Source: Lentisphaerota bacterium (GTDB lineage Bacteria; Verrucomicrobiota; Kiritimatiellia; RFP12; JAAYNR01). Taken from it: DNA of 64,000 nucleotides. Positions 12,289 to 42,039 of the stretch are shown piece after piece. Within the stretch, counting starts at the first letter, position 1. Every line of letters starts with the position of its first letter. The notes below the pieces were generated by a model. It ran no database searches. It was not told where the DNA came from and saw nothing but the letters and a program-made list of their open reading frames with translations. The stretch is from NCBI GenBank assembly GCA_016873675.1, contig VGWG01000005.1:5648-69647 (forward strand). The letters are read 5' to 3'. The position numbers were made by a program, and so were the translations under genes.

Positions 12289-12364
12289 GGCGGGTTAGCT
12301 CAGTTGGTAGAGCAACGGAATCATAATCCGTCTGTCGGGGGTTCAAGTCCCTCACCCGCCACCA
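12289..12364 (+). tRNA. tRNA-Met (anticodon CAT; could be tRNA-Ile2/lysidine type)
   Basis: GGCGGGTTAGCTCAGTTGGTAGAGCAACGGAATCATAATCCGTCTGTCGGGGGTTCAAGTCCCTCACCCGCCACCA. The 7-bp acceptor is GGCGGGT/ACCCGCC, the D-arm AGCTCAGTTGGTAGAGC, the anticodon stem ACGGA/TCCGT with loop ATCATAA, the T-arm GGGGGTTCAAGTCCCTC, and CCA is encoded. It is followed by a hairpin AAAACCCCGGCGTTGCTGGGGGTTTTT. Confidence 0.85.
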
Positions 12365-12640
12365 GCCAAAAAGCCCCACAAAACCCCGGCGTTGCTGGGG
12401 GTTTTTCATTTTACGCCCCGGTTTGCGGGCAAGCCCCGGTTGAGTGGCGTTCGTTCTTGTCCGATTCGTTTCTGACGTGGTATCCTTTCCGGTCTATGAC
12501 CGTGTCAGCATTCATTTCCAAGTGGCGTAAGGTGGAATTGAAGGAGCGCTCCGCCGTTTACGGCTGGTCCGCCGACCTCACCGACGATGCAATCCTCGAA
12601 CGGCTTATGCGTTGAATTCGGGGAATGCAAAAGGATGCCC

Positions 12641-14098
12641 ATGTTTGAACAAGCCTTCAAAAACATCGACGACGTCCTCTGGAAAGACGCTGGCTGCACC
12701 AGCGAACTCGATTACACCGAGCAGACCTCCTGGTTGCTCTTCCTGAAGTACCTCGACGCCCTGGAGACCGATCGCGCCACGGCGGCCGCCCTGAACGGCA
12801 AGACCTATACCCACATCCTCGACGCCCCCTTTCGCTGGGCCACGTGGGCCGCCCCCAAGGGCAAGGACGGCAGGATCGACCACAACACCGCCCTCTCCAG
12901 CGACGACCTCATCGCCTTCGTCAACGGCAAGCTCTTTCCCTACCTGCACGGCTTCAAGGCCAAGGCCACCGGCCCGAACACCATCGAATACAAGATCGGC
13001 GAAATCTTCGGCGAGATCAAGAACCGCATCCAGAGCGGCTACAACCTGCGCGAGATCATTGATCACATCGACGAACTCCGCTTCCAGTCCCAGACCGAGA
13101 AGCACGAGCTCTCGCACCTCTACGAAGCCAAGATCAAAAACATGGGCAACGCCGGGCGCAACGGCGGCGAGTATTACACCCCGCGCCCGCTCATCCGCGC
13201 CATCGTCGCCGTCACCGCGCCCCGGCTCGGTGAGACCCTCTGCGACCCCGCCGTCGGCTCGGCCGGCTTCCTCTGCGAATCCTTCGAGTACCTCCGTGTC
13301 CAGAACCCCCAGCGCACCACCGCCCAGGACCGCACCCTGCAAGAGCGCACCTTTTACGGGAAGGAAAAGAAGTCCCTCGCCTACGTCATCGCGATCATGA
13401 ACATGATCCTGCACGGCATCGAGGCGCCCAACATCATCCACACCAACACGCTCGCCGAGAACCTCGCCGACGTGCAGGAAAAGGACCGCTTCGACATCAT
13501 CCTCGCCAATCCGCCCTTCGGCGGCAAGGAGCGCAAGGAGGTGCAGCAGAACTTCCCCATCCGCACCGGCGAGACCGCCTTCCTCTTCCTCCAGCACTTC
13601 ATCAAATTCCTCAAGGCCGGCGGCCGCGCCGGCGTCGTCATCAAGAACACCTTCCTCTCCAACACCGACAACGCCTCCGTCAGCCTGCGCCGGAAGCTGC
13701 TGGAGGAGTGCGACCTCCACACCGTGCTCGACTGCCCCGGCGGCACGTTCATCGGCGCCGGCGTCAAGACCGTGGTCCTCTTCTTCCAGAAGGGCGCCAA
13801 GACGCGCAAGGTCTGGTTCTACCAGCTCGACCCCGGCCGCAACATGGGCAAGACCAACCCGCTCAACGACGCCGACCTCGCCGAGTTCGTCGCGCTCCAG
13901 AAGACCAAGGCCGACTCGCCCAAGAGCTGGAGCGTGGACGCGGCGGCCATCGATCCGCAGACCTTTGACCTCTCCGTCAAGAACCCCAACGCTGGCGAGG
14001 CGGTCGCCCACCGCACCCCGCAGGAGATCATGGACGAAATCGCCGCGCTGGATGCCGAGAGCGCCGAGGTGCTGGCCAACATCCGAGGGCTGCTATGA
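12641..14098 (+). CDS. hsdM: Type I restriction-modification N6-adenine DNA methyltransferase subunit
   Basis: MFEQAFKNIDDVLWKDAGCTSELDYTEQTSWLLFLKYLD is the HsdM N-domain. Motif I is DPAVGSAGFL and motif IV is NPPFGG. Alternative in-frame starts are 12635 and 12587. The stop overlaps the next gene. Confidence 0.9.
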   Translation: MFEQAFKNIDDVLWKDAGCTSELDYTEQTSWLLFLKYLDALETDRATAAALNGKTYTHILDAPFRWATWAAPKGKDGRIDHNTALSSDDLIAFVNGKLFPYLHGFKAKATGPNTIEYKIGEIFGEIKNRIQSGYNLREIIDHIDELRFQSQTEKHELSHLYEAKIKNMGNAGRNGGEYYTPRPLIRAIVAVTAPRLGETLCDPAVGSAGFLCESFEYLRVQNPQRTTAQDRTLQERTFYGKEKKSLAYVIAIMNMILHGIEAPNIIHTNTLAENLADVQEKDRFDIILANPPFGGKERKEVQQNFPIRTGETAFLFLQHFIKFLKAGGRAGVVIKNTFLSNTDNASVSLRRKLLEECDLHTVLDCPGGTFIGAGVKTVVLFFQKGAKTRKVWFYQLDPGRNMGKTNPLNDADLAEFVALQKTKADSPKSWSVDAAAIDPQTFDLSVKNPNAGEAVAHRTPQEIMDEIAALDAESAEVLANIRGLL

Positions 14099-15162
14099 GC
14101 GAACTGCCGGCCAGGGACTACGGCGACTTTCTGGTTGCAGTCAAGACCCGCATCCGGCAGGCGCAATACCAAGCGTTGCGGGCGACGAACAAGGAGCTTC
14201 TGACGCTCTACTGGGACCTGGGCGAGTCCATCCACCGCAAGCAGGATGCGCTGGGATGGGGCCGATCCGTGGTTGAGACGCTTGCCAGCGACCTCCAGGC
14301 TGAGTTCCCGGGGCGGAACGGTTTCTCAGCCCGCAACCTCTGGAACATGAGGGACTTCTACACCGAATATTCCGCCAGGCCAAAACTGCAACCGCTGGTT
14401 GCAGAAATCAGTTGGGCTAAAAACCTGGTCATCATGGCCCGTTGCAAGGATGACTTGGAGAGGGAGTTCTACCTCCGCGCCACCGCGCGCTTCGGCTGGA
14501 CCAAGGCCGTGCTCCAGCACCAGATCGACAACAAGAGCTACGAGAAATACCTGCTCAACCAGACCAACTTCGACGCGACCCTGCCCGCCGAGATCAAGGC
14601 GCAGGCGGCGCTGGCGGTCAAGGACCACTACACCTTCGATTTTCTCGACCTGGCCGAGGAGCACTCCGAGCGCGAACTGGAGCGGTCCCTGGTCAACAAC
14701 ATCCGCCGATTCCTCGCCGAAATGGGCGGTGCCTTCACCTTTGTCGGCAACCAGCACCGCCTGGAGGTGGGCGGACAGGAATACTTCATCGACCTCCTGC
14801 TGTTCCACCGCCGCCTCCGCTGCCTGGTGGCGATCGAGCTGAAGATCGGCAGTTTCGAGCCGGAGCACAAGGGCAAGATGGAGTTCTACCTGGAGGCGCT
14901 CGACGCGCAGGAGCGCATCGACGGCGAAAACCCGCCCGTCGGCATCATCATCTGCCGCGACAAAAACAAGACCGTGGTCGAATACGCCCTGCGCACCGCG
15001 GGCCGCCCCATCGGCGTCGCCACCTACACCGTCGTCCCCCAACTGCCCGCAACCTACCGCGACCAGCTCCCCAGTCCCGAAGCCATCGCCGAACGCCTCC
15101 GCCTGTGGGCCGCCGAGAGCGCCCGACAAGCCGCCGCTGACCAGGCGGAGGGGGCGGGATGA
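14095..15162 (+). CDS. PDDEXK-nuclease-fold protein YhcG/DUF1016, embedded in the type I R-M operon
   Basis: A 355-aa protein with ...YWDLG..I...W..NLVIMARCKD..EREFYL...GWTKAVLQHQI...FDFLDL...ELE..L...FLAEMGGAFTFVGNQHRLEVGGQEYFIDLLLFHRRLRCLVAIELKIG, the DUF1016 pattern. Its location between hsdM and hsdS is classic. Confidence 0.75.
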   Translation: MSELPARDYGDFLVAVKTRIRQAQYQALRATNKELLTLYWDLGESIHRKQDALGWGRSVVETLASDLQAEFPGRNGFSARNLWNMRDFYTEYSARPKLQPLVAEISWAKNLVIMARCKDDLEREFYLRATARFGWTKAVLQHQIDNKSYEKYLLNQTNFDATLPAEIKAQAALAVKDHYTFDFLDLAEEHSERELERSLVNNIRRFLAEMGGAFTFVGNQHRLEVGGQEYFIDLLLFHRRLRCLVAIELKIGSFEPEHKGKMEFYLEALDAQERIDGENPPVGIIICRDKNKTVVEYALRTAGRPIGVATYTVVPQLPATYRDQLPSPEAIAERLRLWAAESARQAAADQAEGAG

Positions 15163-16322
15163 AGAAGGGGTGGCAGACAAAGACGCTGGGGGACGTCTGC
15201 GCTTTCGACAAAGCGCAAGGCATCCACCGGGGTTTGCCTTACGTCGGGCTTGAACACATCGAGTCTCACACAGCGCGTTTTATCGGCTCAAGCGAGCCGC
15301 AGCCTGTCAAAAGCTCGACGTTTCGATTTTCCGACGAGCACGTTCTCTACGGGCGGCTTCGACCTTATCTGAACAAGGCACTCGCGCCGGATTTCGAGGG
15401 CCATTGCTCAACGGAAATCTTCCCACTGAAGCCGCGCCCTGAACTCTCGCGGGAATATCTGCTGTTTTGGCTGCTGGCTGATGAGACGTGTGACCGCATC
15501 AACGAGACTTGCACGGGCGCACGAATGCCACGCGCTCAGATGAACGACGTGCTCGGCTTTGAGATTCCCGTCCCCCCCCTCCCCGAACAGCGGCGGATCG
15601 TCGGCCTGCTCGACGAAGCGTTTGCGGGCCTCGCCACCGCCAAAGCCAACGCCGAAAAGAACCTCCAGAACGCCCGCGCCCTCTTCGAAAGCCACCTCCA
15701 ATCCGTCTTCGCTGACCAATGGCATGTTGGTAAGTTGGTTACACTCTCGGAGTTGGCCACTGACATCACGGACGGCGACCATCTGCCACCGCCGAAGTCT
15801 CCAACCGGTGTACCATTCATCACCATAGGAAACATCGTGAAGGAGACCCGCGAGATTGATTTTAGCGACACCTTCATGGTGCCTCGCGCTTACTTTGACG
15901 CTCTTAAAACCTACAAGAAGCCTCGGCGGGGAGACGTTCTTTATACCGTCACCGGTTCATTCGGAATCCCCGTCATTGTCCGTGATGACGCCGAATTTTG
16001 CTTCCAGCGGCACATTGGCCTTGTTCGTCCGAAGCCCGAGATAAGCAGTTCCTGGCTCTACTATCTCCTCATGTCTCCACAGTTGCTCAAACAGGCAAAT
16101 GAAGGTGCCACGGGCACGGCACAAAAGACTGTTTCATTAAAACTCCTCCGCAGTTTCATGGTGCCCAAGGTTGCGCCGAACCAACAGAGGCAAGCTGTGG
16201 GAAAACTTGACGCCCTCAATGCCGAAACCCGCCACCTCGCCGCCATCTACTCCCGCAAGCTCGCGGTGCTGGAGGCGTTGAAGAAGTCGCTGCTGCACCA
16301 AGCCTTCACCGGAGAACTCTGA
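15159..16322 (+). CDS. hsdS: Type I R-M specificity subunit (two target-recognition domains)
   Basis: The conserved central repeat is LPPLPEQRRIVGLLDEAFAGL and the C-terminal repeat is LRSFMVPKVAPNQQRQAVGKLDAL...LKKSLLHQAFTGEL, separated by two variable TRDs. It is translationally coupled on both sides. Confidence 0.85.
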   Translation: MKKGWQTKTLGDVCAFDKAQGIHRGLPYVGLEHIESHTARFIGSSEPQPVKSSTFRFSDEHVLYGRLRPYLNKALAPDFEGHCSTEIFPLKPRPELSREYLLFWLLADETCDRINETCTGARMPRAQMNDVLGFEIPVPPLPEQRRIVGLLDEAFAGLATAKANAEKNLQNARALFESHLQSVFADQWHVGKLVTLSELATDITDGDHLPPPKSPTGVPFITIGNIVKETREIDFSDTFMVPRAYFDALKTYKKPRRGDVLYTVTGSFGIPVIVRDDAEFCFQRHIGLVRPKPEISSSWLYYLLMSPQLLKQANEGATGTAQKTVSLKLLRSFMVPKVAPNQQRQAVGKLDALNAETRHLAAIYSRKLAVLEALKKSLLHQAFTGEL

Positions 16323-16324
16323 CC

Positions 16325-16999
16325 ATGCCCAATGCCCCAATCACAGAACGCACTTCCAATCCTGCCGAAATCACCACGGTCGGCATCGATGTGGGCGGCG
16401 AACGCAAGGGTTTTCACGCCATCGCGATTACCAACGGAGATTATTCGAGCCACCTTGCCACAAAGGACGTGCAGGAACTTTCCTGCTGGTGTCGTGATAC
16501 GGTGCGAGCACAAGTCATCGCTGTGGATGCACCGTGCGGCTGGAGCATCGACGGACATTCACGCCCCGCCGAGCGCGAGCTAATGCAAAAGAGCATCTGG
16601 TGTTTCTCAACGCCGACGCGAGAGAAGGCAGTCGGGCATCCCACCAATTACTTCGGCTGGATGCTGCGGGGCGAGGCGTTGTTTCGTGCGCTCGAAAATG
16701 ACTTCCCCCTTTGTCGCAAACTGCCCGCAACAAACCGGAAGTGCTGCTTCGAGACTTTCCCGCACGCCATCACCTGGCATCTGCGGGGTGGCAATGCCGA
16801 TGCTCGGCGTAAGCGTGAACAACGCCGGGCCTTGCTGACGCAGGCGAGAATCGACATCACCGGGTTGACAAACATCGACCTCGTTGATGCCGCGCTCTGC
16901 GCCCTCACGGCTAACCGCGCCGCCACGGGCGGTGCGTGCGTGAGTTTCGGTGAGCAGAACACCGGATTGATCATCGTACCCACCCAACCCAACCTATGA
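16325..16999 (+). CDS. DUF429-like predicted RNase-H-fold nuclease, embedded in the R-M operon
   Basis: A 224-aa protein with VGIDVGGERKGFHAIAI...VIAVDAPCGW...DLVDAALCALTA. Size and motif spacing match DUF429 as I recall it. It starts 3 nt after the hsdS stop. Confidence 0.5.
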   Translation: MPNAPITERTSNPAEITTVGIDVGGERKGFHAIAITNGDYSSHLATKDVQELSCWCRDTVRAQVIAVDAPCGWSIDGHSRPAERELMQKSIWCFSTPTREKAVGHPTNYFGWMLRGEALFRALENDFPLCRKLPATNRKCCFETFPHAITWHLRGGNADARRKREQRRALLTQARIDITGLTNIDLVDAALCALTANRAATGGACVSFGEQNTGLIIVPTQPNL

Positions 17000-17106
17000 A
17001 CACCACCGAACCCCAGCGCCTCACCGCCATCTGCACCCGAAAGCGCGCCACGCTGGGGCAGTTGAAGAAGTCGGTGCTGCACCAAGCCTTCACCGGAGAA
17101 CTTTAG
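16996..17106 (+). pseudogene. Orphan 3' fragment of a second hsdS allele (36 codons)
   Basis: It encodes MNTTEPQRLTAICTRKRATLGQLKKSVLHQAFTGEL. The hsdS C-terminus at 16250-16322 reads ...LAAIYSRKLAVLEALKKSLLHQAFTGEL. The final ~43 nt are near-identical (gaagaagtcgGtgctgcaccaagccttcaccggagaactTtag versus ...tcgCtg...actCtga). Confidence 0.65.
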
Positions 17107-17116
17107 GAGACGCCCC

Positions 17117-18157
17117 ATGAGCAGGGAAAAGAAACTCCAGATTCGTAACAGCACCGCCGAGTTCCTGATCTTCACCCGGCAGGCGGGCGAGGACGGCATC
17201 GAGGTGCGCGTCGAAGACGAGACCGTCTGGCTGACGCAGAAGCTGATGGCGGCGCTGTTCGAGGTGACCGTTCCGACCATCAGCGAGCATCTGGCCAACC
17301 TATATGCCCAAGGTGAAATCTCCGAACCGGCAACTCTTCGGAATTTCCGAACAGTTCAAAAGGAGGGTGCCCGCGATGTCGCCCGGAATATGGATTTCTA
17401 CAACCTCGACGCCATCATCGCCGTAGGCTTCCGGGTGAACTCCGTCCGCGCCATCCAGTTCCGGCAATGGGCCACAGGCGTCTTGCGGGATTTCGCGATC
17501 CGCGGCTACGTGCTGGACAAGGAGCGGCTGAAGAACGGGGCGTTCCTGAGCAAGGAGTATTACGAAAACCTGCTGGCGGAGATTCGCGAGATCCGGGCGA
17601 GCGAGCGGAAGTTCTACCAAAAGATCACCGACATCTACGCCACGGCGATGGATTACAGCCCGGAGGCGGAGACGACCCAGACATTTTTCGCCACAGTGCA
17701 GAACAAGCTGCATTTCGCCATCCATGGCCGTACCGCCGCCGAACTGATTGTGGAACGGGCGGACAGCAAAAAGGAGCGCATGGGCCTGACGACCTGGAAG
17801 AACGCGCCGCACGGGAAGATCCTCAAGCCGGACGTCGTGGTGGCAAAGAACTACCTCACCGAAAAGGAACTGAAGTCACTGGATCGGATCGTGACGATGT
17901 ATCTGGATTACGCGGAAGATCAAGCCGAGCGCGGCATCCCAATGACCATGCGGGACTGGGCGACCAAGCTGAACGCGTTCCTCCAGTTCAACGAACGGGA
18001 CATTCTCGATCATCCGGGGAAGGTGAGCCAGGCGGTGGCCAAGGCCTTTGCCGAAAGCGAGTTCGAGAAGTACCGGATCGTACAGGATCGCCTGTTTGAG
18101 TCGGACTTCGACCGGCATATCAGGAAGGCTTTGGAAGGCGGCAAGGAAGAATCATGA
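17117..18157 (+). CDS. rhuM: RhuM-family protein (R-M/island-associated DNA-binding protein)
   Basis: ETVWLTQKLMAALFEV, FYNLDAIIAVGFRVNS, RASERKFYQKITDIYATAMDYS and IVTMYLDYAEDQAERG closely follow the RhuM consensus. RBS AGGAGA is present. Confidence 0.8.
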   Translation: MSREKKLQIRNSTAEFLIFTRQAGEDGIEVRVEDETVWLTQKLMAALFEVTVPTISEHLANLYAQGEISEPATLRNFRTVQKEGARDVARNMDFYNLDAIIAVGFRVNSVRAIQFRQWATGVLRDFAIRGYVLDKERLKNGAFLSKEYYENLLAEIREIRASERKFYQKITDIYATAMDYSPEAETTQTFFATVQNKLHFAIHGRTAAELIVERADSKKERMGLTTWKNAPHGKILKPDVVVAKNYLTEKELKSLDRIVTMYLDYAEDQAERGIPMTMRDWATKLNAFLQFNERDILDHPGKVSQAVAKAFAESEFEKYRIVQDRLFESDFDRHIRKALEGGKEES

Positions 18158-20646
18158 ACGAAGCCGAAACCAGAGCCGAGCACATCGACCCCGCACTTGC
18201 CGCGGCGGGTTGGGGCGTCGTTGAGGGGAGCCGCATCCGGCGCGAGTACCCGATCGCGCCGGGCCGCATCGAGGGGCTCGGCCGGCGCGGCAAGCCGCTC
18301 ATCGCCGACTACATCCTGGAGTACCGCAACCGCAAGCTGGCCGTGGACGAGGCCAAGGCATGGGATGTTGAGTTGACCGAGGGGGTGGCGCAGGCCAAGA
18401 ACTACGCCGGCAAGCTCGCCGTCCGTTTCGCCTACGCCACCAACGGCCGTGGCATCTACGCCGTGGACATGCAGACCGGCAGGGAAGGCGAGATCGCCCG
18501 CTATCCGACCCCCGACGAACTCTGGGCCATGACCTTCGCCGGGGAGAACGCTTGGCGGGACCGGTTCACGGCCGTGCCGTTCGAGGACAAGGGCGGCTCG
18601 CACCCGACCCGGTACTATCAGGACACCGCCATCGAGCGGGTGATGGATGCCATCGCGGCGAACCAGCCGCGCATCCTGCTCACGCTCGCCACGGGCACGG
18701 GCAAGACCTTCATCGCCTTCCAGATCGCCTGGAAGCTCTTCCACTCCCGCTGGAACCTCTCCCGCGAGCCTTCCCGCCGGCCGCGCATCCTGTTCCTCGC
18801 CGACCGGAACATCCTGGCGAACCAGGCCTACAACGCCTTCTCCGCCTTCCCCGAGGATGCGCTGGTGCGGATCGAGCCGGACGACATCCGCAGGAAGGGC
18901 AAGGCGCCGAAGAACGGCAGCCTGTTCTTCACCATCTTCCAGACCTTCATGACCTCCGGCGCCCAGGCGTCCGATGAAGTCAATACGGTCAACGCGGTCA
19001 AACCCGCCGTCGCCCCGCCGCCGATCTATCCGCTGGCGGAGGACGAGGTCGCCCCCTTGGACATGGCGGCGGAACCGCCCGCGCTCTTCGGCGAATACCC
19101 GCCGGACTTCTTCGACTTCATCGTCATTGACGAGTGCTACCGCGGCGGCGCGAACGACGAGAGCGCCTGGCGCGGCATCCTCGAATACTTCGCCCCGGCG
19201 GTGCAGATGGGGATGACCGCCACGCCCAAACGCGAGGAGAACGTGGACACCTACCGCTACTTCGGCGACCCGGTCTACATCTACTCCCTCAAGGACGGCA
19301 TCAACGACGGCTTCCTGACGCCATTCAAGGTGAGGCAAATCCAGACCACGCTTGACGAGTACGTCTACACGCCCGATGATTGCGTTTTGGAAGGAAGCAT
19401 CGAAGAGGGCAAGCTTTACGACGAGGAAGACTTCAATCGCATCATCGAGATCAAGGAACGGGAGAAGAAGCGGGTTGAAATCTTCATGGCGCTGATTGAC
19501 CAAAAGGAAAAGACCCTCGTCTTTTGTGCGAGTCAAATTCACGCGTTGGCCGTCCGCGACCTGATCAACCAGATGAAGACCAGCGCCGACCCGAACTACT
19601 GCCAGCGGGTGACGGCGAACGACGGCGCGCTCGGCGAGCAGCACCTGCGCGACTTCCAGGACAACGAGAAGACGATCCCGACGGTCTTGACCACGTCGCA
19701 GAAGCTTTCGACCGGCGTGGACGCCCGCAACGTCCGCAACATCGTCCTGATGCGGCCCATCAGGCGGATCATCGAGTTCAAGCAGATCATCGGGCGCGGC
19801 ACGCGGCTTTACGACGGCAAGGACTACTTCACGATCTACGACTTTGTGAAGGCGTGCCAGCATTTCAGCGATCCCGAGTGGGACGGCGAGCCGCTCGAAC
19901 CGGAGCCCTGCCCGAAGTGCGGCTGCCAGCCGTGCGCGTGCGTAAAGCCGCCGCCGCAAGCGTGCCCCGTCTGCGGCCAGGCGCCCTGCGTCTGCCCGCC
20001 GGGTCCCTGCCCGAGATGCGGCCAGCGGCCATGCGTATGCAAAAAGCGGGAAAGGGTGAAGGTAAAACTGGCGGACGGCAAGGAGCGCACCATCCAGCAC
20101 ATGATGATGACCAGCTTCTGGCACCCCGACGGCACGCCCATGTCCGCGCAGCAGTTCATGGAACTGCTCTTCGGCAAGCTCCCGGACTTCTTCAAAGACG
20201 AAGCCGAACTCCGCGCCATCTGGAGCGCTCCCGACACGCGCAAGAAGCTCTTGCAAGGGCTGGCCGAGAAAGGTTTTGGCCACGACCAACTATCCGAAAT
20301 GCAGAAGATCATCGACGCCGAAAAGAGCGACCTGTTCGATGTGCTGGCCCATGTGGCCTACGCCTTGCCGCCGGTCACCCGCGAAGTGCGGGCCGCGAAC
20401 GCCAAAGTCCACATCAACGCCCAGTTCAATGCCAAGCAGCAACTCTTCCTTGATTTTGTGCTCCAGCACTACATCACGGTCGGCGTGGAAGAACTGGACC
20501 AGGAAAAACTCACGCCGCTGCTCCTCCTCAAATACCACAACTCCCTCGCGGATGCCGTCGCTGACCTCGGCGGCCGGCCCGAAGAAATCAACAAAACCTT
20601 CGCCGGTTTCCAGAAGTATCTTTATCAACAAACGGCTGCGGCGTGA
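18154..20646 (+). CDS. hsdR: Type I restriction endonuclease R subunit (EcoEI-like C-terminal domain) with a Cys-rich insertion
   Basis: N-terminal HSDR_N (ETRAEHIDPALAAAGW...IADYILEY), helicase motifs (LATGTGKT, DEC, MTATP, TGVD, QIIGRGTR) and a C-terminal EcoEI_R_C-like region. Between them sits 3x CPxCGQxPCxC (CPKCGCQPCACV / CPVCGQAPCVCP / CPRCGQRPCVCK), encoded by a ~45-nt tandem repeat at 19905-20040. The start overlaps the rhuM stop. Confidence 0.85.
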   Translation: MNEAETRAEHIDPALAAAGWGVVEGSRIRREYPIAPGRIEGLGRRGKPLIADYILEYRNRKLAVDEAKAWDVELTEGVAQAKNYAGKLAVRFAYATNGRGIYAVDMQTGREGEIARYPTPDELWAMTFAGENAWRDRFTAVPFEDKGGSHPTRYYQDTAIERVMDAIAANQPRILLTLATGTGKTFIAFQIAWKLFHSRWNLSREPSRRPRILFLADRNILANQAYNAFSAFPEDALVRIEPDDIRRKGKAPKNGSLFFTIFQTFMTSGAQASDEVNTVNAVKPAVAPPPIYPLAEDEVAPLDMAAEPPALFGEYPPDFFDFIVIDECYRGGANDESAWRGILEYFAPAVQMGMTATPKREENVDTYRYFGDPVYIYSLKDGINDGFLTPFKVRQIQTTLDEYVYTPDDCVLEGSIEEGKLYDEEDFNRIIEIKEREKKRVEIFMALIDQKEKTLVFCASQIHALAVRDLINQMKTSADPNYCQRVTANDGALGEQHLRDFQDNEKTIPTVLTTSQKLSTGVDARNVRNIVLMRPIRRIIEFKQIIGRGTRLYDGKDYFTIYDFVKACQHFSDPEWDGEPLEPEPCPKCGCQPCACVKPPPQACPVCGQAPCVCPPGPCPRCGQRPCVCKKRERVKVKLADGKERTIQHMMMTSFWHPDGTPMSAQQFMELLFGKLPDFFKDEAELRAIWSAPDTRKKLLQGLAEKGFGHDQLSEMQKIIDAEKSDLFDVLAHVAYALPPVTREVRAANAKVHINAQFNAKQQLFLDFVLQHYITVGVEELDQEKLTPLLLLKYHNSLADAVADLGGRPEEINKTFAGFQKYLYQQTAAA

Positions 20647-20711
20647 CGAATCGGGTCGCCCGCCGCGAGCCCCCCTTTCCCCTTTTCAGCTTTCCTCTTT
20701 CGGCCAGACAA

Positions 20712-20893
20712 GGGACGGGCCTGAATGGCGTGAATGGCGCTAAGTTAAGGGGCTATTGCCATCTTAATCGTAATCGTAATCTTGATCTTAATATTAATCT
20801 TAATCTCTTGGTGGAGAACGGATTACGATTATGATTATGATTATGATTATGATCGGAAGCATCGCTTTACTTAGCGCCATTCGGGACGGGCCT
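20712..20893. mobile_element. MITE-like non-coding element: 10-bp direct repeats flanking 14-bp terminal inverted repeats and an AT-rich palindromic core
   Basis: Direct repeat GGGACGGGCC at 20712-20721 and 20884-20893. Inverted repeat GAATGGCGCTAAGT (20731-20744) versus CTTAGCGCCATTC (20870-20882). The core is (TAATC/GATTA)-type pentamer runs arranged as an imperfect palindrome around a 15-nt centre, locally AT-rich in a 65% GC genome. It lies 70 bp after the hsdR stop. Confidence 0.5.
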
Positions 20894-20989
20894 TGCATCT
20901 CTCCGGGTGCCTGCAGAACCGACGAAGGAAATGTTGCAATCGCCTCGTAGGGTAACACCCCATCGCCAAAAAAAAGCACGCCGTGCATC

Positions 20990-31456: not shown

Positions 31457-31521
31457 GTGTGGATCTCCTTGTTTGGATTTGATGATACCTAATTACTGCA
31501 ATGCAATAGTTTAGACACACA

Positions 31522-32193: not shown

Positions 32194-32249
32194 GACGGCT
32201 TTGTCGTCAGCCACCCGCGCCGTTGCGGTGGCGATCAATACGCGGGTAC

Positions 32250-34619: not shown

Positions 34620-34622
34620 GGT

Positions 34623-35186
34623 TCAGTTCTCCTTTTTCATCTGACTCGGTTTCATTCTTCTCGCCGGGCGTGGCGCCCAAGTTTGACCATCTCCAGAACG
34701 AGCAACGGGATGGCTCCCACGGCGAGCAGCAACAGGCAATCGGTGAATGGCATGTGTGACGTCTTCAGAAAGCGCCCCAGCATCGCGCTGTGTTGGCTCC
34801 ACACCTGAAGGGTGAAGGAAAGGGCAACCACGAGCATGAGATTGACGTTTGTGAATAGGGAGATGCGCCAGACCGGCTTCGCCGAGCAGGCCGGAGATAA
34901 CACCGGCCGCGATGAGAATCCAGATCAGGAGGCTCTTGAACTGGCCGAGCACAATCCGAAGCGGGCTGATGGGTTTGCCTTCCTTCAGTTCGTTCGGGCC
35001 GCTGGTCGAAAGGCGCTGCGCCGCTTCCTGCGAAGAGAGCCCAACCGCCGCGGACTCAAGCCGGCTCAGCACATCCTCAGCCGACTGGCTGTGCCAAGCT
35101 GTGTTCGCCGGCTGTGCGGCGAACCCCTCGCTATCTGCGGGCAGAAGGCTGTAAGTCGTTGGGTCTGCACCAACCGGATTGTTCAT
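34623..35186 (-). pseudogene. P-type cation ATPase remnant: the N-terminal ~80 aa joined out of frame to the C-terminal ~80 aa
   Basis: The 35186-downward frame gives HSQSAEDVLSRLESAAVGLSSQEAAQRLSTSGPNELKEGKPISPLRIVLGQFKSLLIWILIAAGVISGLLGE (Cation_ATPase_N plus TM1). The second frame (34903-34652) gives ...FTNVNLMLVVALSFTLQVWSQHSAMLGRFLKTSHMPFTDCLLLLAVGAIPLLVLEMVKLG, the last TM helices of P2-type ATPases. About 2.2 kb of the expected core (DKTGT, TGDN and others) is missing. Confidence 0.65.
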
Positions 35187-36322
35187 GCCTTTCCCTTTGG
35201 CTGCTGTTTTGACGACCGTTGCATCAGGTTCTCCATCAATTTGTCGAACGGCTGATTGAACTTCGTGACGCCTTCGTCCTCCAATTGCTGAGTAACCGCA
35301 TCGAGACTGATTCCGATATCCGACAATCGCTTCAAGATCCGTGCCGCATGGGCAACATCTTTCTCGAGACGGGCTTGCGCGTCTCCATGGTCGCGATAGG
35401 CGTCGAACGTTTCGACCGGAGCCGTGTTCACCGTGTCCGGTCCGATGAGGGCCTCAACGTATTTCACGTCGCTGTAATCGGGATTCTTTGTGCCCGTGCT
35501 GGCCCAGAGCAACCGCTGAACGTGAGCGCCCTGCGCCGCCAGACTCCTGAACCGGTCGCCGTCGAAGATCTCTTTGAATATCTGATAGGCCATCTTCGCG
35601 CTGGCGATTGCGACTTGCCCGAGCGCCTCCTTCGCGACATCTGCCGCTGGGCCGTTTTTCTCGATGATTGGTTTCAGCAGCGGGTCCACTAGCACATCGA
35701 TACGGCTCACAAAGAAACTGGCCACCGAGGCCACGTGGTTCACCGCTTGCCTTTGGCTCAACCGCGCTTCGATGCCAGCGATGTAGGCTTCCGCCACCTG
35801 CCGGTAACGAGACAGCCCAAAGATCAAGGTCACATTGACGTTGATTCCTTCCCCTATCAGTTGCCGGATGGCGGGCAGTCCTTCGACTGTGGCGGGCACT
35901 TTGATGAAGACGTTGGGCCGGTTCAGGGCACTCCACAACCGGCGGGCTTCCATCAGCGTGCCAGGAGTGTTATGCGCCAGATGAGGGTTGACCTCCAAGC
36001 TGATGTAACCGTCTTTACCGTCGGTCCGGTCATAAAGCGGCCGGAACGCATCGGCGGCGCTTTGAACATCGCGCCGGGTGATCGCTTCATAGATATCCTG
36101 AGCGCCCTTCCCTTTAACCGCCAAGTCGCGAATATCCTCGTCGTAATCGTGACTCTCCACAATAGCCTTCTCGAAGATGGCGGGATTGGAGGTCATCCCC
36201 CGGAGTCCATCCTCTTCGATCAGACGCCGGAGCTCGCCGCCTGCGATCAGGTCGCGTCGGATGTAGTCCAGCCAAATGGACTGCCCGAGTGTTTCCACGT
36301 GTTTTACAGGATTGATCTTCAT
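35183..36322 (-). CDS. tal: Transaldolase
   Basis: MKINPVKHVETLGQSIWLDYIRRDLI...MTSNPAIFEKAI...ISLEVNP...FIKVPAT are transaldolase signatures, including the Schiff-base Lys region. It is translationally coupled to the P-ATPase remnant. Confidence 0.88.
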   Translation of the reverse strand: MKINPVKHVETLGQSIWLDYIRRDLIAGGELRRLIEEDGLRGMTSNPAIFEKAIVESHDYDEDIRDLAVKGKGAQDIYEAITRRDVQSAADAFRPLYDRTDGKDGYISLEVNPHLAHNTPGTLMEARRLWSALNRPNVFIKVPATVEGLPAIRQLIGEGINVNVTLIFGLSRYRQVAEAYIAGIEARLSQRQAVNHVASVASFFVSRIDVLVDPLLKPIIEKNGPAADVAKEALGQVAIASAKMAYQIFKEIFDGDRFRSLAAQGAHVQRLLWASTGTKNPDYSDVKYVEALIGPDTVNTAPVETFDAYRDHGDAQARLEKDVAHAARILKRLSDIGISLDAVTQQLEDEGVTKFNQPFDKLMENLMQRSSKQQPKGKA

Positions 36323-36351
36323 GGGGTTGCCTCGGTAACACGGTCGTGGAA

Positions 36352-36639: not shown

Positions 36640-36795
36640 CGCTCTTCTCCGTTATGATATCGTAACAACACATCCCAGCCCCTTCTTTTTCTCAGAAGCC
36701 AAGAATAAACGGGCACCCTTTTTAGCAGCACCTATCCTGATGCGCCGTTGATGGCACGCCCGTCTCTGTCGCCGGGGCTACAGGAGAGCGGTCGG

Positions 36796-37023
36796 CTATA
36801 CTGTGTCCCCCGCTTCATCCACGGTCTGCTTGGCAATATCCTTTGCTTTCGCCACGAACTTACGAGCGTTGTCCTTGGCTTTCCGGACGCCAGCCTCCGC
36901 GCTCTGCTTGACGTGTCCCATGGCCTGATCCATCTGGCCCTTGGCGCGCAATTTGTCGTTGTTGACCAGCGTACCCGCCGCTTCTTCGATTCGGCCCTTC
37001 GCTACTTCTATCGATCCATTCAT
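36796..37023 (-). CDS. CsbD-family general stress protein
   Basis: MNGSIEVAKGRIEEAAGTLVNNDKLRAKGQMDQAMGHVKQSAEAG…K..AKD is the CsbD repeat pattern. RBS AAGAGAGGGAATC is present. The ORF-track start at 37086 is an extension. Confidence 0.6.
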   Translation of the reverse strand: MNGSIEVAKGRIEEAAGTLVNNDKLRAKGQMDQAMGHVKQSAEAGVRKAKDNARKFVAKAKDIAKQTVDEAGDTV

Positions 37024-37422
37024 GATTCCCTCTCTTTTCTTGTTTCGAACGTTGGTTCTTTCGTTGGTGACGAGAGCGTACACCATCGGCTGAACACACG
37101 GGTATAGGGTGTAACCCTACGCGCGTATCCCCGGCGTGTCGATCAACATGGCGCCACCCTCCAGAACAAGCAACGGGCGTCGGGAGGTGGTAGAAAAACC
37201 CTCGGGACGACGCTATGAATCATGGCGGGGCCGCCCGATGCGTGGCACTGCACACACACCCAGTCGCCCACACACGGCAGGTCACTGGCGGACTCGACTG
37301 CGAAACGGAACTTGCCCGCGAGCTCCGCAAAGGTGTCGGCCCCTGTGAAAGATATTCTGGACATCTTTACCCGTTTCTGGCACGGTAGCCTCATGCATTC
37401 CCTGCTCCCATCCGGTTCCGGG

Positions 37423-38721
37423 ATGATTTCGGCCAATGCGGACCGATGCCAGCCGAAATGTGATTTGTTATCCATAGCCTTTCAAGCCGTGAGGCGGATC
37501 GCAGAAACACTGATTGTCTTTGCAGTCGGGGCCGGGAGCGTGAGGACCCTGGCCGCCGGGGAGGATCCCTTTGCGGACGTTGTGGCCGCGCCACAGGTCG
37601 TGGTGAACGCCGCCGCCCTGTCGGAACCGCAGTGGACGGATAATCTGCTCCTCCGCAAGGAGGTGTATCTGCTGTTTGCCACGAGTGACGAGACGGACGG
37701 CATCATGTCGCGACTGTCGGCGGGGTTTGAGGTGCAGAAGCGATTCTCCACGGCGACGCGCACGCTGGCATCGGTCGACTATCAGGGACGTCTCGTTTAC
37801 CGGGATCGCATGCGGGATACATCTGTCGACCCGATGGGGCATGACGCATCGCCGTGGGAGTACGAAACGCATAATGCGTATCTTGACTTCTATAACCTGT
37901 TTGGCGGCCCCGGTCGCTTCAATCTCCGGTGCGGCTATTTCTATCAGCCTTTTGGCCTCAACCAGCAGACCGATACGCATGGGACGATCCTGCAACTGTC
38001 CAATGACCGCCTGTTTGGTTCGGATCGCGACGGTCAGGCGATTCTGTACGGCACGTTGACGGACGATCTGGATTACACCGTCGGCTACCTGCTGGGCGCA
38101 GGACCGGATTTCAAGCTGGCGGGTCAGACGGGCATGGGGATCGCACGCGTGGCGCTAAACAGTGATTGGCTCTTCCGCCGCGGACTTGAGGTCGGGATGA
38201 GCGTTGCGGCCGGCGAGCGTGTTTCCGAGTACGACCGGATGCGCATGGAATCGTCTGTGACGAACAACCCGGCCATGGCACGACGCGCCGATACCCCGGC
38301 GCGCAACGCGATGGCCGGGTCAATGATCGGCAACGACCCCCTGATTACGACCTTCCGCGCGGGTCTGGACGTGCGCAAACGGATGGATTCCACGATCGGC
38401 CCCTTTACGCTGACCGGCGAGGCTGCGATGGGCACGGATGACGGCGATCCCATCCTGTCGGGACTGACGCAGGCGGACTGGCTCAATCCCGGGCGGCGCT
38501 GGGGCGTGGCGGCACACGTGCAATACTTCCGGCGCGAGGGTTCAGAGGAACACGACCATGCGGAGGAATCGCGGGCAACCTTTGTGCTTACGCGGTACTT
38601 CCGAAACGACGTGGGCAATGCGTCCTTGCACTGGGTCGCCCTGGCGGTGGCGCAAGATCTCCAGCCGTCTGACGGTCCAGACGACACGCTGGCCATGGTT
38701 CACTATTACCGGTATTGGTGA
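37423..38721 (+). CDS. Putative outer-membrane beta-barrel protein (hypothetical)
   Basis: A signal-like N-terminus (RRIAETLIVFAVGAGSVRTLAA), alternating hydrophobic/aromatic strands, and a C-terminal ...HYYRYW aromatic terminus typical of OMPs. The start is uncertain (37393 or 37423). Confidence 0.4.
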   Translation: MISANADRCQPKCDLLSIAFQAVRRIAETLIVFAVGAGSVRTLAAGEDPFADVVAAPQVVVNAAALSEPQWTDNLLLRKEVYLLFATSDETDGIMSRLSAGFEVQKRFSTATRTLASVDYQGRLVYRDRMRDTSVDPMGHDASPWEYETHNAYLDFYNLFGGPGRFNLRCGYFYQPFGLNQQTDTHGTILQLSNDRLFGSDRDGQAILYGTLTDDLDYTVGYLLGAGPDFKLAGQTGMGIARVALNSDWLFRRGLEVGMSVAAGERVSEYDRMRMESSVTNNPAMARRADTPARNAMAGSMIGNDPLITTFRAGLDVRKRMDSTIGPFTLTGEAAMGTDDGDPILSGLTQADWLNPGRRWGVAAHVQYFRREGSEEHDHAEESRATFVLTRYFRNDVGNASLHWVALAVAQDLQPSDGPDDTLAMVHYYRYW

Positions 38722-38726
38722 GCGTG

Positions 38727-39425
38727 ATGACTGCACACATGCTGCTGTTGACAGGGATTCTGGCGTTGGCTCCGATGATGTCGCGCGCGGCGGTCGGATG
38801 TACGCTCAGCAATCCGGCGCGAGACCTCCAGTCCCTTTTCCCTGAGATGACCTCGTATCGCGAGGATGTGAAGGAACTGCCGAAGTTCCCGCAGGGGCGG
38901 GAGCTGTATGAAGCGCTCCACGCACGCATGGGCGGCGAACTCGATCCGGTCTACGAAGCCTTCGATACGCCTTACACCCTCTATTCGGTCTTCAAAGGCG
39001 AGGAACGGATTGGCTACGTCCACGGCGTCAATGTGCCGGGGCGCGGCGGCGTGATCCAGGTCTTTGTGTCAGCCGAGCCCGCCACAGGGGCGATCAGCAA
39101 GCTCTTTTTCCAGCGCCTGGAGAGTCCGGGCGGCGCGATCCTGCGGGCCCGGGAGACGCGCGATCAGTTCACCGGACTTTCGCTGGCCGATTTCTACAAG
39201 CACGATTATTATGCGGAGGTCGAGCCCGGCAACACGGCCGACAAGATCGCCCGGATCAAGCCGCCGGCCGCGCTGCCCGAGGATGCGAAACCGGATTGGG
39301 ACGCGACCTTGCGCGGACTTCGCAAGAATCTGATCCTGCTGGACATCTTTGCGTTCGACCGGCGCTATGAACCGTTTTTCAAACGTGCCGAAGAGGCGCG
39401 CCAAAAGAAAGGGAACAAACCATGA
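38727..39425 (+). CDS. Secreted protein with possible degenerate FMN-binding-domain-like core
   Basis: A signal peptide, then GYVHGVNVPGRGGVIQVFVSAEPATGAISKLFFQRLESPGG, which resembles the G..G.I.V.V....G.I....ETPG pattern of FMN_bind domains. The downstream S/TGAT flavinylation motif is not intact (PGNTADKIA). The assignment is weak. Confidence 0.3.
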   Translation: MTAHMLLLTGILALAPMMSRAAVGCTLSNPARDLQSLFPEMTSYREDVKELPKFPQGRELYEALHARMGGELDPVYEAFDTPYTLYSVFKGEERIGYVHGVNVPGRGGVIQVFVSAEPATGAISKLFFQRLESPGGAILRARETRDQFTGLSLADFYKHDYYAEVEPGNTADKIARIKPPAALPEDAKPDWDATLRGLRKNLILLDIFAFDRRYEPFFKRAEEARQKKGNKP

Positions 39426-39829
39426 AACCTATCCGCAGCGTCGCATGGATGCTATTGGCCACAGCCGTCGCGGGCGTGCTGATCGCCGGATGCGGGCGCA
39501 AGGCCGGTCACGGAACGCATTTTGGCGAGCCGTTCACATCCGCGCCGGTTGTGACGATTGCGCAACTGCTGGAAACGCCGGAGGCCTTTCAGCGGAAGCC
39601 GGTGCGCGTGCAGGGAACCATCGAACGGCAGTGTCCCATGGCGGGGTGCTGGTTCTTCATACACGACGGGCAGGGCCGTTCCATCAAGGTGGAACTTGGC
39701 GACTACCTGCCCAAGTTGCCGCAAAACATCGGCAACATCGCCGAGGCTGAAGGCGAGTTGATCAAAAAAGGGGCTGCCTACGAATTCATCGGCACACGCG
39801 TAACGTTCACAAAAAAGGACGCTCCATGA
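39422..39829 (+). CDS. Small lipoprotein with a CPMAGC pair
   Basis: Lipobox LIAGC, 135 aa, with QCPMAGCWFFIHDGQGRSIKVE. It is translationally coupled to both neighbours. Confidence 0.4.
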   Translation: MKPIRSVAWMLLATAVAGVLIAGCGRKAGHGTHFGEPFTSAPVVTIAQLLETPEAFQRKPVRVQGTIERQCPMAGCWFFIHDGQGRSIKVELGDYLPKLPQNIGNIAEAEGELIKKGAAYEFIGTRVTFTKKDAP

Positions 39830-41073
39830 CGTTCACGGCTTTCGCATGGAAAAATCTGGTCCGCCGTCCGGTGCGCACGGCGTTGACGGCGGGCGGGGTT
39901 GCGCTGGCTGTCGCGGTGTCGGTGAGTCTGGGCGGGTTCAATCTGGGCTACAAGCGGGCCATTGCCGGGAGCATTGAGCAACTCGGTTTTCAGGTGATGG
40001 TCATGGCCAAGGGTTGTCCGTATGAGGCGGCGACGATGATGCTCAAGGGCGGCACGGGTTTGCTCTATCTGCCCGAAGATGCACACGCGAAGATCAAGAA
40101 TGACCCCGATATTGAGGCGATCACTCCGATCTTCATCGGCATCGCCGAAAAACAGGGATCGTCGATCGACGACGCGCCATCAGCCGCATCCTGGACCATC
40201 CTGTCGGGTGTGGACGAGGTTTCGTTCCGGGTGATGAAACCCTGGCTGACTTTCAAGCAGGGGCCTGGATATGACGGCGGGCGGTGGTTTTCTGCGGATG
40301 CGACCAATGAGGTGGTCATGGGGTTTGAGGCGGCGGAGTACGAGCAGCGCAAGGTGGGCGATGTGTTGTATGCATCCATCACGCCCAATGGCAAAACGGT
40401 GCCGGTGATGCATGCCTTCCGGGTGATCGGTGTGCTCGAGCGGAGCGGCTCCCAGGACGACGGCACGGTCTTTCTGCCGCTGAAGACGGCCCAGCAGATT
40501 TTTGGGCGCGAGGGGCAACTCACGATCATCGGCATCAAGCTGCGCGAGTTCAACGGCATCCGCATGCGCGAATTTGAGGGGCGATGGATGAGCATTCCCG
40601 AGGTGCAGGTGGTGAGCCTGGAGCAGGTGAAAGGCGCGCTGGTGTCGCTCGTCGGCACGGCGCAGACCATGGTGGCGGCGGTGGCCGTGATTGCTGTTAT
40701 TGTGGCGGTGATTGGCGTGATCAACGCGATTCTGATGAGTGTCTACGAGCGCATGGGCGAGATCGGCATCATGAAGGCCGTCGGTGCGACGCGCATTCAG
40801 ATCTTCCGGTTGATCTGGACGGAGACCTTGCTGATCTGTCTGGCCGGGGCGGTTGTCGGCTGCCTGCTGGCGGCCATGGGCGCCGGGGCCACGGATGCCG
40901 CGCTGCGCCATCTGTTGAACATCGGCGTGACGCAGGGGCTGGTCCGCATCACCCCGGGCCTGCTGGGCGCGGCTGTGTCGGGGTCCGTCATGCTCGGCTT
41001 GTTGGCGGGCATCTGGCCGGCGCGCCGCGCGGCGGAATTGCATCCGGTGGAGGCGATTCGCGCCAACGAATAA
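39826..41073 (+). CDS. ABC transporter permease, FtsX/MacB/LolC family
   Basis: An N-terminal TM, a large periplasmic MacB_PCD-like domain, then three C-terminal TM helices of the FtsX fold (…ILMSVYERMGEIGIMKAVGATR…). Confidence 0.75.
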   Translation: MTFTAFAWKNLVRRPVRTALTAGGVALAVAVSVSLGGFNLGYKRAIAGSIEQLGFQVMVMAKGCPYEAATMMLKGGTGLLYLPEDAHAKIKNDPDIEAITPIFIGIAEKQGSSIDDAPSAASWTILSGVDEVSFRVMKPWLTFKQGPGYDGGRWFSADATNEVVMGFEAAEYEQRKVGDVLYASITPNGKTVPVMHAFRVIGVLERSGSQDDGTVFLPLKTAQQIFGREGQLTIIGIKLREFNGIRMREFEGRWMSIPEVQVVSLEQVKGALVSLVGTAQTMVAAVAVIAVIVAVIGVINAILMSVYERMGEIGIMKAVGATRIQIFRLIWTETLLICLAGAVVGCLLAAMGAGATDAALRHLLNIGVTQGLVRITPGLLGAAVSGSVMLGLLAGIWPARRAAELHPVEAIRANE

Positions 41074-41083
41074 GGGGGCATCG

Positions 41084-41764
41084 ATGAACGGAGACGTGAT
41101 TGTCGCGGGACGTGGTCTGTGCCGCTTCTATCTGCGGGGCAGCGAAACGGTGCGTGCGCTCGATGGCGTGGATATCGATGTTCGCCCTGGCGAGTCCGTC
41201 TGCATTCTCGGGCCATCCGGTTCGGGAAAAACGACGCTGATCAATTTGCTTTCGGCTTTGGACGCGCCGACCGCCGGCACGCTGACCATCAATGGCCGGC
41301 GCGTCGACGGGCTGCCCGAAAACGAGCTGGTGAACATCCGGCGCGGCACCCTGGGGTATGTCTTCCAAAAATTTCATCTGATCCCGACGCTGACCGTGGC
41401 CGAGAATGTCGCCCTGCCTCTTTTATTCCTGGGGCGGAAAGCCGATCCAGACGCTCTGGCGCGGGTACTGGATGCGGTGGGCTTGGCTGACCGGGCAACC
41501 CATCTTCCAAAAGAACTTTCGGGCGGCCAGATGCAACGGGTGGCCATCGGGCGGGCGCTTGTCACGGGGCCGCGCGTGCTGATCGCCGATGAGCCCACGG
41601 GCAACCTGGACAGTCAGACGGGCGGTGCGATCATGGATCTGTTTGTCAAGGCCGTGCGCGAGGAGGGCGTTGCGCTCGTGCTGACCACGCACAACCTGGC
41701 GCTTGCGTCCCGATGCGATCACCGTGTCACACTGGAAGACGGACGTGTGAAACAGGGCGCGTGA
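41084..41764 (+). CDS. ABC transporter ATP-binding protein (MacB/LolD type)
   Basis: Walker [12 protein letters not shown]-loop, signature [15 protein letters not shown], Walker [13 protein letters not shown]-loop TTHN. Confidence 0.85.
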
Positions 41765-41986
41765 GGATGCTGCGCGTCCTGTCAGCCCGCCGGTGCAGCA
41801 GGTGCCGCACTTTGGGGAGAAGAAAGAAAGGTGTCGCTTGTCATCCTTCAGTTTTCATGCGATACTTGCCCCGCTGCTTGCTTTGGGTCTTTTGTCGCTC
41901 GAACAGCGCGCAATTATCCAAACGGGGGGCACTGCTGTCAACGCAATCACAACAGGTTCAACCTGTGTGTTGTATTGGGGTTATAC

Positions 41987-42039
41987 TCAACGCAATCCTA
42001 ATCGGTCTGTCGGGGGTGCGCGTCCCTCACCCGCCACCG
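41987..42039 (+). repeat. Degenerate copy of the 3' two-thirds of tRNA-Met (candidate attR / island boundary)
   Basis: tcaacgcaatcctaatcggtctgtcgggggtgcgcgtccctcacccgccaccga versus tRNA 12315-12364 gcaacggaatcataatccgtctgtcgggggttcaagtccctcacccgccacca. About 47/53 nt are identical. The T-loop is mutated, and there is no 5' acceptor or D-arm, so it is not a functional tRNA. Confidence 0.7.

Follow-up and report, generated by a model that had tools for sequence, protein, structure and literature searches.

Organization of the locus

The DNA under study is a 64,000-nt stretch (hereafter, the window) of a 69-kb JGI metagenome contig, Ga0194125_10000444, from an uncultured freshwater Kiritimatiellia bacterium, and the segment of interest is a 29.6-kb region at 12365–41987, which lies between an intact tRNA-Met gene and a decayed fragment of the same gene (Table 1). 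On the left, the tRNA gene follows metG, trpD, trpC and trpF, and on the right the fragment precedes recO. The named RecO homologues of the window belong to metagenome-assembled genomes (MAGs) of Kiritimatiellia. A sequence-only reading had described a ~53-nt stretch, ~89% identical to the 3' two-thirds of the tRNA gene, with a ruined T-loop and no 5' half, and had taken the region between the two copies as an island inserted site-specifically into the tRNA 3' end between core flanking genes. Each of these statements was borne out by the comparisons described below.

Local alignment of the tRNA region with 41850–42150 places 12313–12363 on 41988–42038 without gaps, with 45 of 51 positions identical (88%). 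The repeated block at the tRNA gene is 12313–12364, from the anticodon stem to CCA, whereas the fragment, which begins in the anticodon stem and ends with ACC, comprises tRNA positions 25–75, the 5' 24 nt being absent. Six substitutions separate the two copies (G30C, A35C, C41G, T55G, A57G, and A58C), and the terminal A is replaced by G. As a result of these changes, the anticodon CAT reads CCT, the anticodon stem is broken by G30C and C41G, and the T-loop TTCAAGT reads TGCGCGT. The tRNA-Met gene is the sole tRNA found in the window by ARAGORN and Rfam, and Rfam yielded no other match; the fragment was not called as a tRNA by Rfam at E ≤ 5, and neither Rfam nor an alignment scan of the window revealed a further tRNA fragment between the two copies.

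The repeat is far beyond chance, as its alignment score of 72 is three times the best value (24) obtained with any other 300-nt segment, both strands of the window included. The fragment is also separated from recO by 35 nt, the spacing that the intact tRNA gene has in relatives. An assembly chimera might be suspected in a metagenome contig, since repeats can mislead assemblers; the repeat is, however, merely 51 nt long at 88% identity, and both junctions recur free of mismatches across samples and assemblers. The right junction (231 nt) was recovered in contigs from five other samples, and the left junction (320 nt), for which a look-up with the trpC sequence was used, in three other samples. 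The view that there is no real insertion, the contig being chimeric or the fragment a chance or tRNA-family resemblance, can thus practically be set aside.

Empty sites in relatives

RecO was aligned with 35 homologues, and a scan of GTDB with one genome per species yielded 80 recO loci. In the three closest genomes (L007, L008, and L009; RecO 91–92% identical), a full-length tRNA-Met gene lies 35 nt upstream of recO. A metagenome pattern scan, which yielded three loci, added a metagenome contig (L091) as a fourth site of this kind. All four sites have the order trpC-trpF-tRNA-Met, followed by recO at 35 nt, which is the abutting arrangement that the sequence-only reading had proposed to look for as an empty site.

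In BLASTN comparisons, the empty-site loci are colinear with the window up to 12370 joined to 41988–43597, at 88–89% identity, and the two halves overlap solely in the 56-nt repeat. The homology of the window to these relatives accordingly ends at ~12370. In a six-way alignment, the DNA to the left of the window tRNA gene and to the right of the fragment is homologous to the flanks in the relatives, whereas the DNA from 12365 onward and leftward of 41987 has no counterpart in them. Genes of the island were found within 10 kb upstream of recO at none of the 80 recO loci. Candidates for the export module upstream of recO in two distant relatives (L011 and L012) were rejected, as they are low-identity generic ABC matches only, and that of L011 lies on the opposite strand.

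The outgroup (L010 and L092; RecO 83% identical) has tRNA-Met, a DUF502 gene and recO in this order, with unrelated genes upstream. There, a PAS/GAF histidine kinase gene and a lactonase gene precede tRNA-Met instead of trpF (5934–10004 in L010), and the linkage of trpF to the tRNA gene would therefore be younger than that of the tRNA gene to recO.

The same site is occupied by an integrase-bearing element

The metagenome pattern scan also retrieved a contig (L093) in which a perfect copy of tRNA positions 27–76 (50 nt), without a 5' half, lies 35 nt before recO. On the opposite strand, a 452-aa open reading frame (ORF) that matches Phage_integrase (PF00589, E 6.6e-20) starts 118 nt from this fragment. 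A second contig (L094, 13.7 kb) carries an integrase 99% identical to that of L093 and shows the order PfkB-6PGD-LarN-unk242-recO, fragment, integrase, AbiEii-AbiEi, FtsK/SpoIIIE, and Lactamase_B with further genes. L094 and the window are 90% identical in the host flank, and beyond the fragment nothing in L094 matches the window, so that the two elements have no common cargo. These results indicate that the junction between tRNA-Met and recO is a recurrent target, at which the cargo differs by lineage.

Related integrases were found at further sites. In L095, the integrase is 74% identical to that of L093, and a perfect 51-nt block equal to window tRNA positions 26–76 lies 125 nt upstream of it. 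In L100, the integrase is 68% identical to that of L093, with a tRNA-Met-type block ~125 nt away. Four 7.2-kb elements (L096–L099) occupy tRNA-Arg(TCT) instead; their integrases are 52% identical to the tRNA-Met-specific ones, and a perfect 50-nt repeat, from the anticodon stem to CCA, lies 121 nt from the integrase start. Their genes, at 6478–13773 in L096 and 3307–10602 in L098, encode the integrase, 279-aa and 99-aa ORFs and an AAA_25 protein. The architecture of the family is constant: an intact tRNA gene, cargo, an inward-pointing integrase, an arm of ~120 nt and a displaced fragment. The perfect attachment (att) blocks of these elements begin at tRNA position 26–28.

Two side observations concern these elements. 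The 4.3-kb contig L095 carries at 1–1455 the tRNA-Met block, then a hairpin homologous to the left end of the window island, followed by response-regulator and CheB genes, and is compatible either with attP, in an excised or tandem form, or with attR and its host flank. In the tRNA-Arg(TCT) elements of L096 and L098, the perfect repeat extends beyond the tRNA gene into its terminator.

Both ends of the island are homologous to the element family

Over 54 nt, the left end of the island matches the sequence behind the att block of L095 at 80% identity, with an alignment score of 61 against 22 ± 3.3 for shuffled sequences (maximum, 36). A terminator-like stretch likewise follows the regenerated tRNA gene in L096 and L098.

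The right end of the island (~41825–41987) is in register with the integrase-proximal arm of the family. A global in-register alignment of the 100 nt before the fragment with the L093 arm gave a score of 14, compared to −31.6 ± 9.0 for shuffles; this score was reached by none of 2000 shuffles and none of 659 other window segments, and the outcome for L095 was as for L093. Local alignment of the right arm with L093 is not significant on its own (score 25, compared to a shuffle maximum of 26). In a four-way alignment, GAACAGCGC, TGTCAAC blocks and the integrase start codon are conserved. The arm contains a sigma-70-like promoter (TTGACA-17-GATAAT, 11 of 12 matches) on the minus strand, running from 41941 to 41913 and aimed at the vestige of an integrase gene, and the -35 hexamer of this orphan promoter coincides with the conserved TGTCAAC block.

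At the vestige itself, the minus strand reads ATGAAAACTGAAGGATGACAAGCGACACC in the window and ATGAAACGCAAGCAAGATGAGACGCGGCACC in L093 (M-K-x-K-x-D-x-x-R-H-L), and the similarity stops thereafter. The sequence-only reading had stated that no integrase is present. This holds for an integrase gene, as a tblastn search of the window with the L093 integrase gave a best E of 0.49 and none of the island proteins matched Phage_integrase in Pfam; the promoter-like site, the start codon and ~13 codons at ~41825–41941 had escaped that reading.

Relative to the empty sites, 12365–41987 is an insertion; the same site is occupied elsewhere by an integrase-bearing element; and both ends of the insertion are homologous to those of the same family. 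We conclude, with a probability of roughly 0.87, that this region is the immobilized remnant of an integrative element, which inserted into the 3' part of tRNA-Met by means of a tyrosine integrase that has since been lost.

By the established mechanism of such integrases, the attP of the element would have contained a copy of the tRNA, reaching from its anticodon stem to CCA, and behind it a terminator belonging to the element. The crossover would have occurred in the anticodon loop and joined the host 5' part of the tRNA gene to the copy of the element, yielding the working gene at 12289–12364 and the terminator at 12384–12400, so that the present 3' half of the tRNA gene would be that of the element. 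The original 3' part of the host gene would have been displaced by 29.6 kb to 41988–42039, still 35 nt from recO, and would have decayed since the insertion at about the neutral rate. The integrase gene would have occupied the opposite end of the element, on the minus strand and ~120 nt away from the displaced fragment, an arrangement seen in living relatives of the element, and its later deletion would have left the promoter-like site, the start codon and ~13 codons at 41825–41941. The cargo presumably arrived with the element. Since the integrase is gone and the att core mutated, the island is probably fixed and immobile at present.

The T-loop was considered as proof that the 3' half of the tRNA gene derives from the element, as it reads TTCAAGT in the window and in the L095 block and TTCGAGC in the sister clade, but was rejected as suggestive only, since the outgroup L010 also has TTCAAGT.

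Cargo of the island

The genes between the two copies are listed in Table 1. In the type I restriction-modification (R-M) operon (12587–20646, plus strand), YhcG, DUF429 and RhuM genes are embedded among hsdM, hsdS and hsdR, and PADLOC reported MTase_I, Specificity_I, REase_I, PDC-S02, PDC-S44, and PDC-S05 for this operon. The operon, the LpxR-family protein, the glucan synthase, the superoxide dismutase (SOD), the fragment of a P-type ATPase and the export module had all been named by the sequence-only reading, which missed the phosphoketolase, the transaldolase, the histidine phosphatase and the CsbD-like protein. The element that this reading described as resembling a miniature inverted-repeat transposable element (MITE) is a long imperfect palindrome of 170 nt, with 61-nt arms that are 77% complementary and AT-rich hexamer repeats inside (AATCGT/GATTAT). 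Its fold energy is −80.8 kcal/mol (z −8.8), and it matches no Rfam family. It is present as a single copy in the window, and its terminal motif is confined to its two arms.

Table 1. Features of the tRNA-Met–recO locus, in window coordinates.
Feature	Position	Strand	Evidence or remark
metG (left flank)	7622–9715		followed by trpD, trpC, trpF (trpF ~11563–12216), then tRNA-Met
Sigma-70-like promoter of tRNA-Met	12246–12274		
tRNA-Met(CAT), intact, attL side	12289–12364	+	ARAGORN; Rfam 69.8 bits
Left end of island	12365–12417	+	terminator-like hairpin 12384–12400 plus T run; absent from empty sites
hsdM	12587–14098	+	Pfam; PADLOC MTase_I
YhcG nuclease	14095–15162	+	Pfam
hsdS	15159–16322	+	Pfam; PADLOC Specificity_I
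DUF429	16325–16999	+	Pfam
RhuM	17117–18157	+	Pfam
hsdR	18154–20646	+	Pfam; PADLOC REase_I
Imperfect palindrome ("MITE-like element")	20715–20890		between hsdR and LpxR
LpxR-family outer-membrane protein	20990–22042	+	Pfam PF09982, E 3.9e-95
Cyclic beta-1,2-glucan synthase-type protein, 2839 aa	22151–30670	-	Pfam GH94_b-supersand, Glyco_hydro_94, Glyco_trans_2_3 (GT2 + GH94)
Fe/Mn SOD	30743–31456	-	Pfam, NCBIfam
Histidine phosphatase	31522–32253	-	Pfam, NCBIfam
Phosphoketolase (XFP)	32250–34619	-	Pfam, NCBIfam
P-type ATPase N-terminal fragment, 187 aa	34623–35186	-	Pfam, NCBIfam
Transaldolase (TAL)	35183–36322	-	Pfam, NCBIfam
CsbD-like small protein	36796–37086	-	Pfam E 1.6e-8, under curated cut-off; also called in L001
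Export module, five genes	37222–41764	+	Pfam; NCBIfam LolCDE/MacB-like
Two export-module proteins without family match	37222–38721, 38727–39425	+	
DUF4920-like protein	39422–39829	+	export module
MacB/FtsX permease	39826–41073	+	export module
ABC ATPase	41084–41764	+	export module
Integrase 5' vestige	41825–41862	-	start codon 41862–41860, ~13 codons, frameshifted, then lost; aligned to L093, L095, L100
Integrase-proximal arm	41863–41987	-	with orphan sigma-70-like promoter
Decayed 3' tRNA-Met fragment, attR side	41988–42039	+	35 nt upstream of recO
recO	42074–42853	+	Pfam RecO_N/RecO_C; 91–92% identical to L007–L009 recO; first host gene right of island, flank

A fuller cluster of TAL, AckA, P-type ATPase and XFP is present in L105 (10001–17815), L106, and L090 (10001–15046). 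The cluster in the window, with TAL, the 187-aa stub and XFP, would be a reduced version, from which ackA and most of the P-type ATPase gene appear to have been deleted inside the island. For the transaldolase, the closest sequence besides that of the window itself is 82% identical, and no homologue between 82% and 100% identity was found in a collection of 5.8 billion proteins, which holds the RecO of the sister clade at 91%. As the core proteins of the window and the sister clade are 91–96% identical, the sister clade appears, from these protein comparisons, to lack this transaldolase.

Among the island proteins, Pfam revealed no phage structural or lysis families, as would be expected of a prophage, and no relaxase, coupling protein or type IV secretion gene, as would be expected of an integrative and conjugative element. 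The IMG/VR contigs also give no support for a prophage, as neither the tRNA-Met att block nor any relative of the L093 integrase occurs among them.

Several further observations concern the flanks. At the empty sites (9966–10001 in L007; also L008, L009, and L091), no terminator lies between tRNA-Met and recO, and the two may be co-transcribed. In the window (41764–42074), recO lies behind the co-oriented ABC export operon of the island, and the orphan integrase promoter points away from recO. Downstream of recO, between the 242-aa gene 3' of it and a LarN-like gene (window 43597–43613), lies a variable spot, at which L008 carries ~9 kb (11524–20469) and L009 ~1.2 kb (7241–8485), both absent from the window. 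Beyond the island, the GC content falls to 0.58–0.59 at 52000–55000, compared to ~0.63–0.66 nearby. Some of the assemblies with the closest RecO are labelled "Akkermansia" or "Lentisphaerales"; the titles "Akkermansia muciniphila" or "uncultured Akkermansia sp." of the MAGs L008, L009, L010, L040, and L046 (RecO 45–92% identical) are probably mislabels.

Composition, age and phylogeny

The sequence-only reading had noted no obvious difference in GC content and had suggested that the island may be old; the former was reproduced, and the latter is supported quantitatively. The GC content is 0.58–0.66 throughout, and the tetranucleotide correlation of the island with the flanks (r = 0.94) equals that of the left flank with the right flank. 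The most deviant parts are the R-M part at 12–22 kb (r = 0.77–0.80) and 32–38 kb (r = 0.78), both mildly so, whereas the glucan synthase and the export module are host-like (r = 0.83–0.89).

At four-fold degenerate sites, the window and the sister clade differ by a Jukes-Cantor (JC) distance of 0.25–0.28, or ~0.13 per lineage. The distance of the fragment from the conserved tRNA is 0.128, with a large error, as it is based on only six substitutions. Since the two values match, the insertion would be roughly as old as the split from the sister clade. An old insertion agrees with the host-like composition, with the loss of the integrase and with junctions that are the same in every sampled contig of the species.

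The uneven composition bears on how the island was built. In place of a single arrival, a small element of the L096 type may have come first, the cargo being added later by tandem accretion and secondary insertions, with internal deletions removing the backbone and the integrase. Such a composite origin would account for the deviation of the R-M part and 32–38 kb next to the host-like glucan synthase and export module, for the internal decay of a cluster that is complete elsewhere but here lacks ackA and most of the P-type ATPase gene, and for the absence of backbone genes, and elements of this integrase family are as small as 7.2 kb. On the other hand, the island contains no internal tRNA fragment, second att block or second integrase vestige, and no observation requires more than one arrival. 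We regard a composite origin as possible, at somewhat less than even odds; it alters how the island was built, not what the island is.

By pairwise identity, the window is sister to ((L007, L008), L009), and L010 lies outside. Because the window is sister to all of the empty-site genomes, the tree leaves the direction of the change undecided. It would also accommodate an ancestral arrangement of two tRNA-Met genes around chromosomal genes, in which homologous recombination between the two copies removed the block from the sister clade and the second copy in the window lost its 5' half and decayed, as one loss fits the tree like one gain and the composition is host-like. Four observations speak against this arrangement. 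The fragment starts at the anticodon stem, exactly as do the perfect att blocks of the integrase-bearing elements; the island-side DNA at both junctions is homologous to the arms of these elements, including the integrase start and the promoter-like site; the outgroup L010 and 76 more recO loci are without the cargo beside recO; and the sister clade appears to be without a close transaldolase. We therefore consider the ancestral arrangement very improbable.

Weighing the integrative origin

Several points weigh against our conclusion that the region is the remnant of an integrative element. The two short ends are the sole connection of the island to a mobile element, and the integrase vestige is itself short, with ~40 nt recognizable, solely through their register. 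Among the island proteins, Pfam revealed no integrase, excisionase, replication, conjugation or phage gene, and it is the absence of all backbone genes that a single arrival accommodates least comfortably. The island is no more distant from the flanks in tetranucleotide composition than these are from each other, and much of the cargo serves central metabolism or envelope biosynthesis. The absence of cargo from the sister clade was tested with the transaldolase as the sole protein, and the tree alone does not discriminate between an insertion in the lineage of the window and a precise excision or loss on the sister side. The island is an integrative element in either case, whether it was never present in the sister clade or was precisely excised there.

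A bolder interpretation, which we consider unlikely, is that the ends define an undescribed family of tRNA-targeting elements in uncultured Kiritimatiellia, able to move very large, host-like blocks of envelope and central-carbon genes. The anticodon arm would be the centre of the ~50-nt att block of this proposed family, a terminator carried by the element would follow the block, and the targets would be tRNA-Met or tRNA-Arg. The island would then be a piece of another Kiritimatiellia chromosome, captured by aberrant excision, as in specialized transduction, and locked in by the loss of the integrase, and recO would now be read through from the export operon rather than from the tRNA promoter. 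If this were true, the blocks moved would include the 8.5-kb cyclic glucan synthase gene, LpxR, SOD, phosphoketolase and transaldolase. The hairpin at the left end was considered as proof of a captured donor chromosome and was rejected, as the family members L096 and L098 carry such a terminator anyway.

Under the integrative reading that we prefer, with the integrase since lost, the locus provides a cleanly mapped case of island-mediated gene gain in Kiritimatiellia, which are known almost only from metagenomes, with the empty site, the site occupied by an element with a live integrase and the decayed occupied site all available. Within a single locus, a lineage would have gained and kept a type I R-M/defence cluster, a lipopolysaccharide-modifying protein, a cyclic glucan synthase, a secreted-type SOD and a phosphoketolase/transaldolase pair. 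For annotation, tools that require an integrase miss old islands of this kind, which a tRNA fragment together with comparative genomics can recover. No general principle is altered.

Comparison with known systems

A regenerated tRNA gene (tDNA) together with a displaced fragment marks the ends of islands, and an attP centred on the anticodon is a major class, to which roughly half of the tDNA islands mapped in Islander belong (Hudson et al., 2015; PMC4383910). The window has an intact tRNA gene and its cognate fragment in direct orientation, both on the plus strand, and the fragment extends from the anticodon arm, a canonical sublocation for integrases, to the 3' end of the tRNA. Thus, as in Islander-type islands, an intact tRNA gene is regenerated, a direct 3' fragment is displaced, the repeat spans the tRNA from its anticodon stem to its 3' end, a tyrosine integrase family is responsible and alternative islands occupy the same site in related strains. 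Williams (2002) reportedly treats tDNA-integrated islands with anticodon-centred attP as well. Unlike typical Islander entries, the window island contains no tyrosine integrase gene and no phage or conjugation genes, and the att repeat has decayed at 6 of 51 positions, which include the anticodon loop and the T-loop. Nor does the island show the deviant composition that is expected of horizontally acquired islands in general. With its integrase gene deleted and its att repeat decayed, the locus would fail the integrase filter of Islander.

The island also resembles the cis-mobilizable elements (CIMEs), which are att-flanked islands without recombination or transfer modules, known from the ICESt-type elements of Streptococcus. 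Like these, it is bounded by attL and attR, and carries cargo only, with no integrase or transfer genes. Whereas the att sites of CIMEs can be used by a related integrase in trans, the att core of the window is mutated, including the anticodon loop, and a mobilization in trans is doubtful, judged from the sequence.

Close systems also include the elements of L093/L094, L095, L100, and L096–L099. These have intact integrases, perfect 50–51-nt repeats and other cargo (AbiE, FtsK/SpoIIIE, and AAA_25), and the window shares their ends alone: the position of the repeat in the tRNA gene, the homologous arm with the promoter-like site and integrase start, and the terminator after the att block. The insertion site of the L093/L094 element, tRNA-Met beside recO, is also the same. 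Overall, the region is a genomic island of a known, well-documented and ordinary kind, an old integrase-less tDNA island, here in a poorly known phylum.

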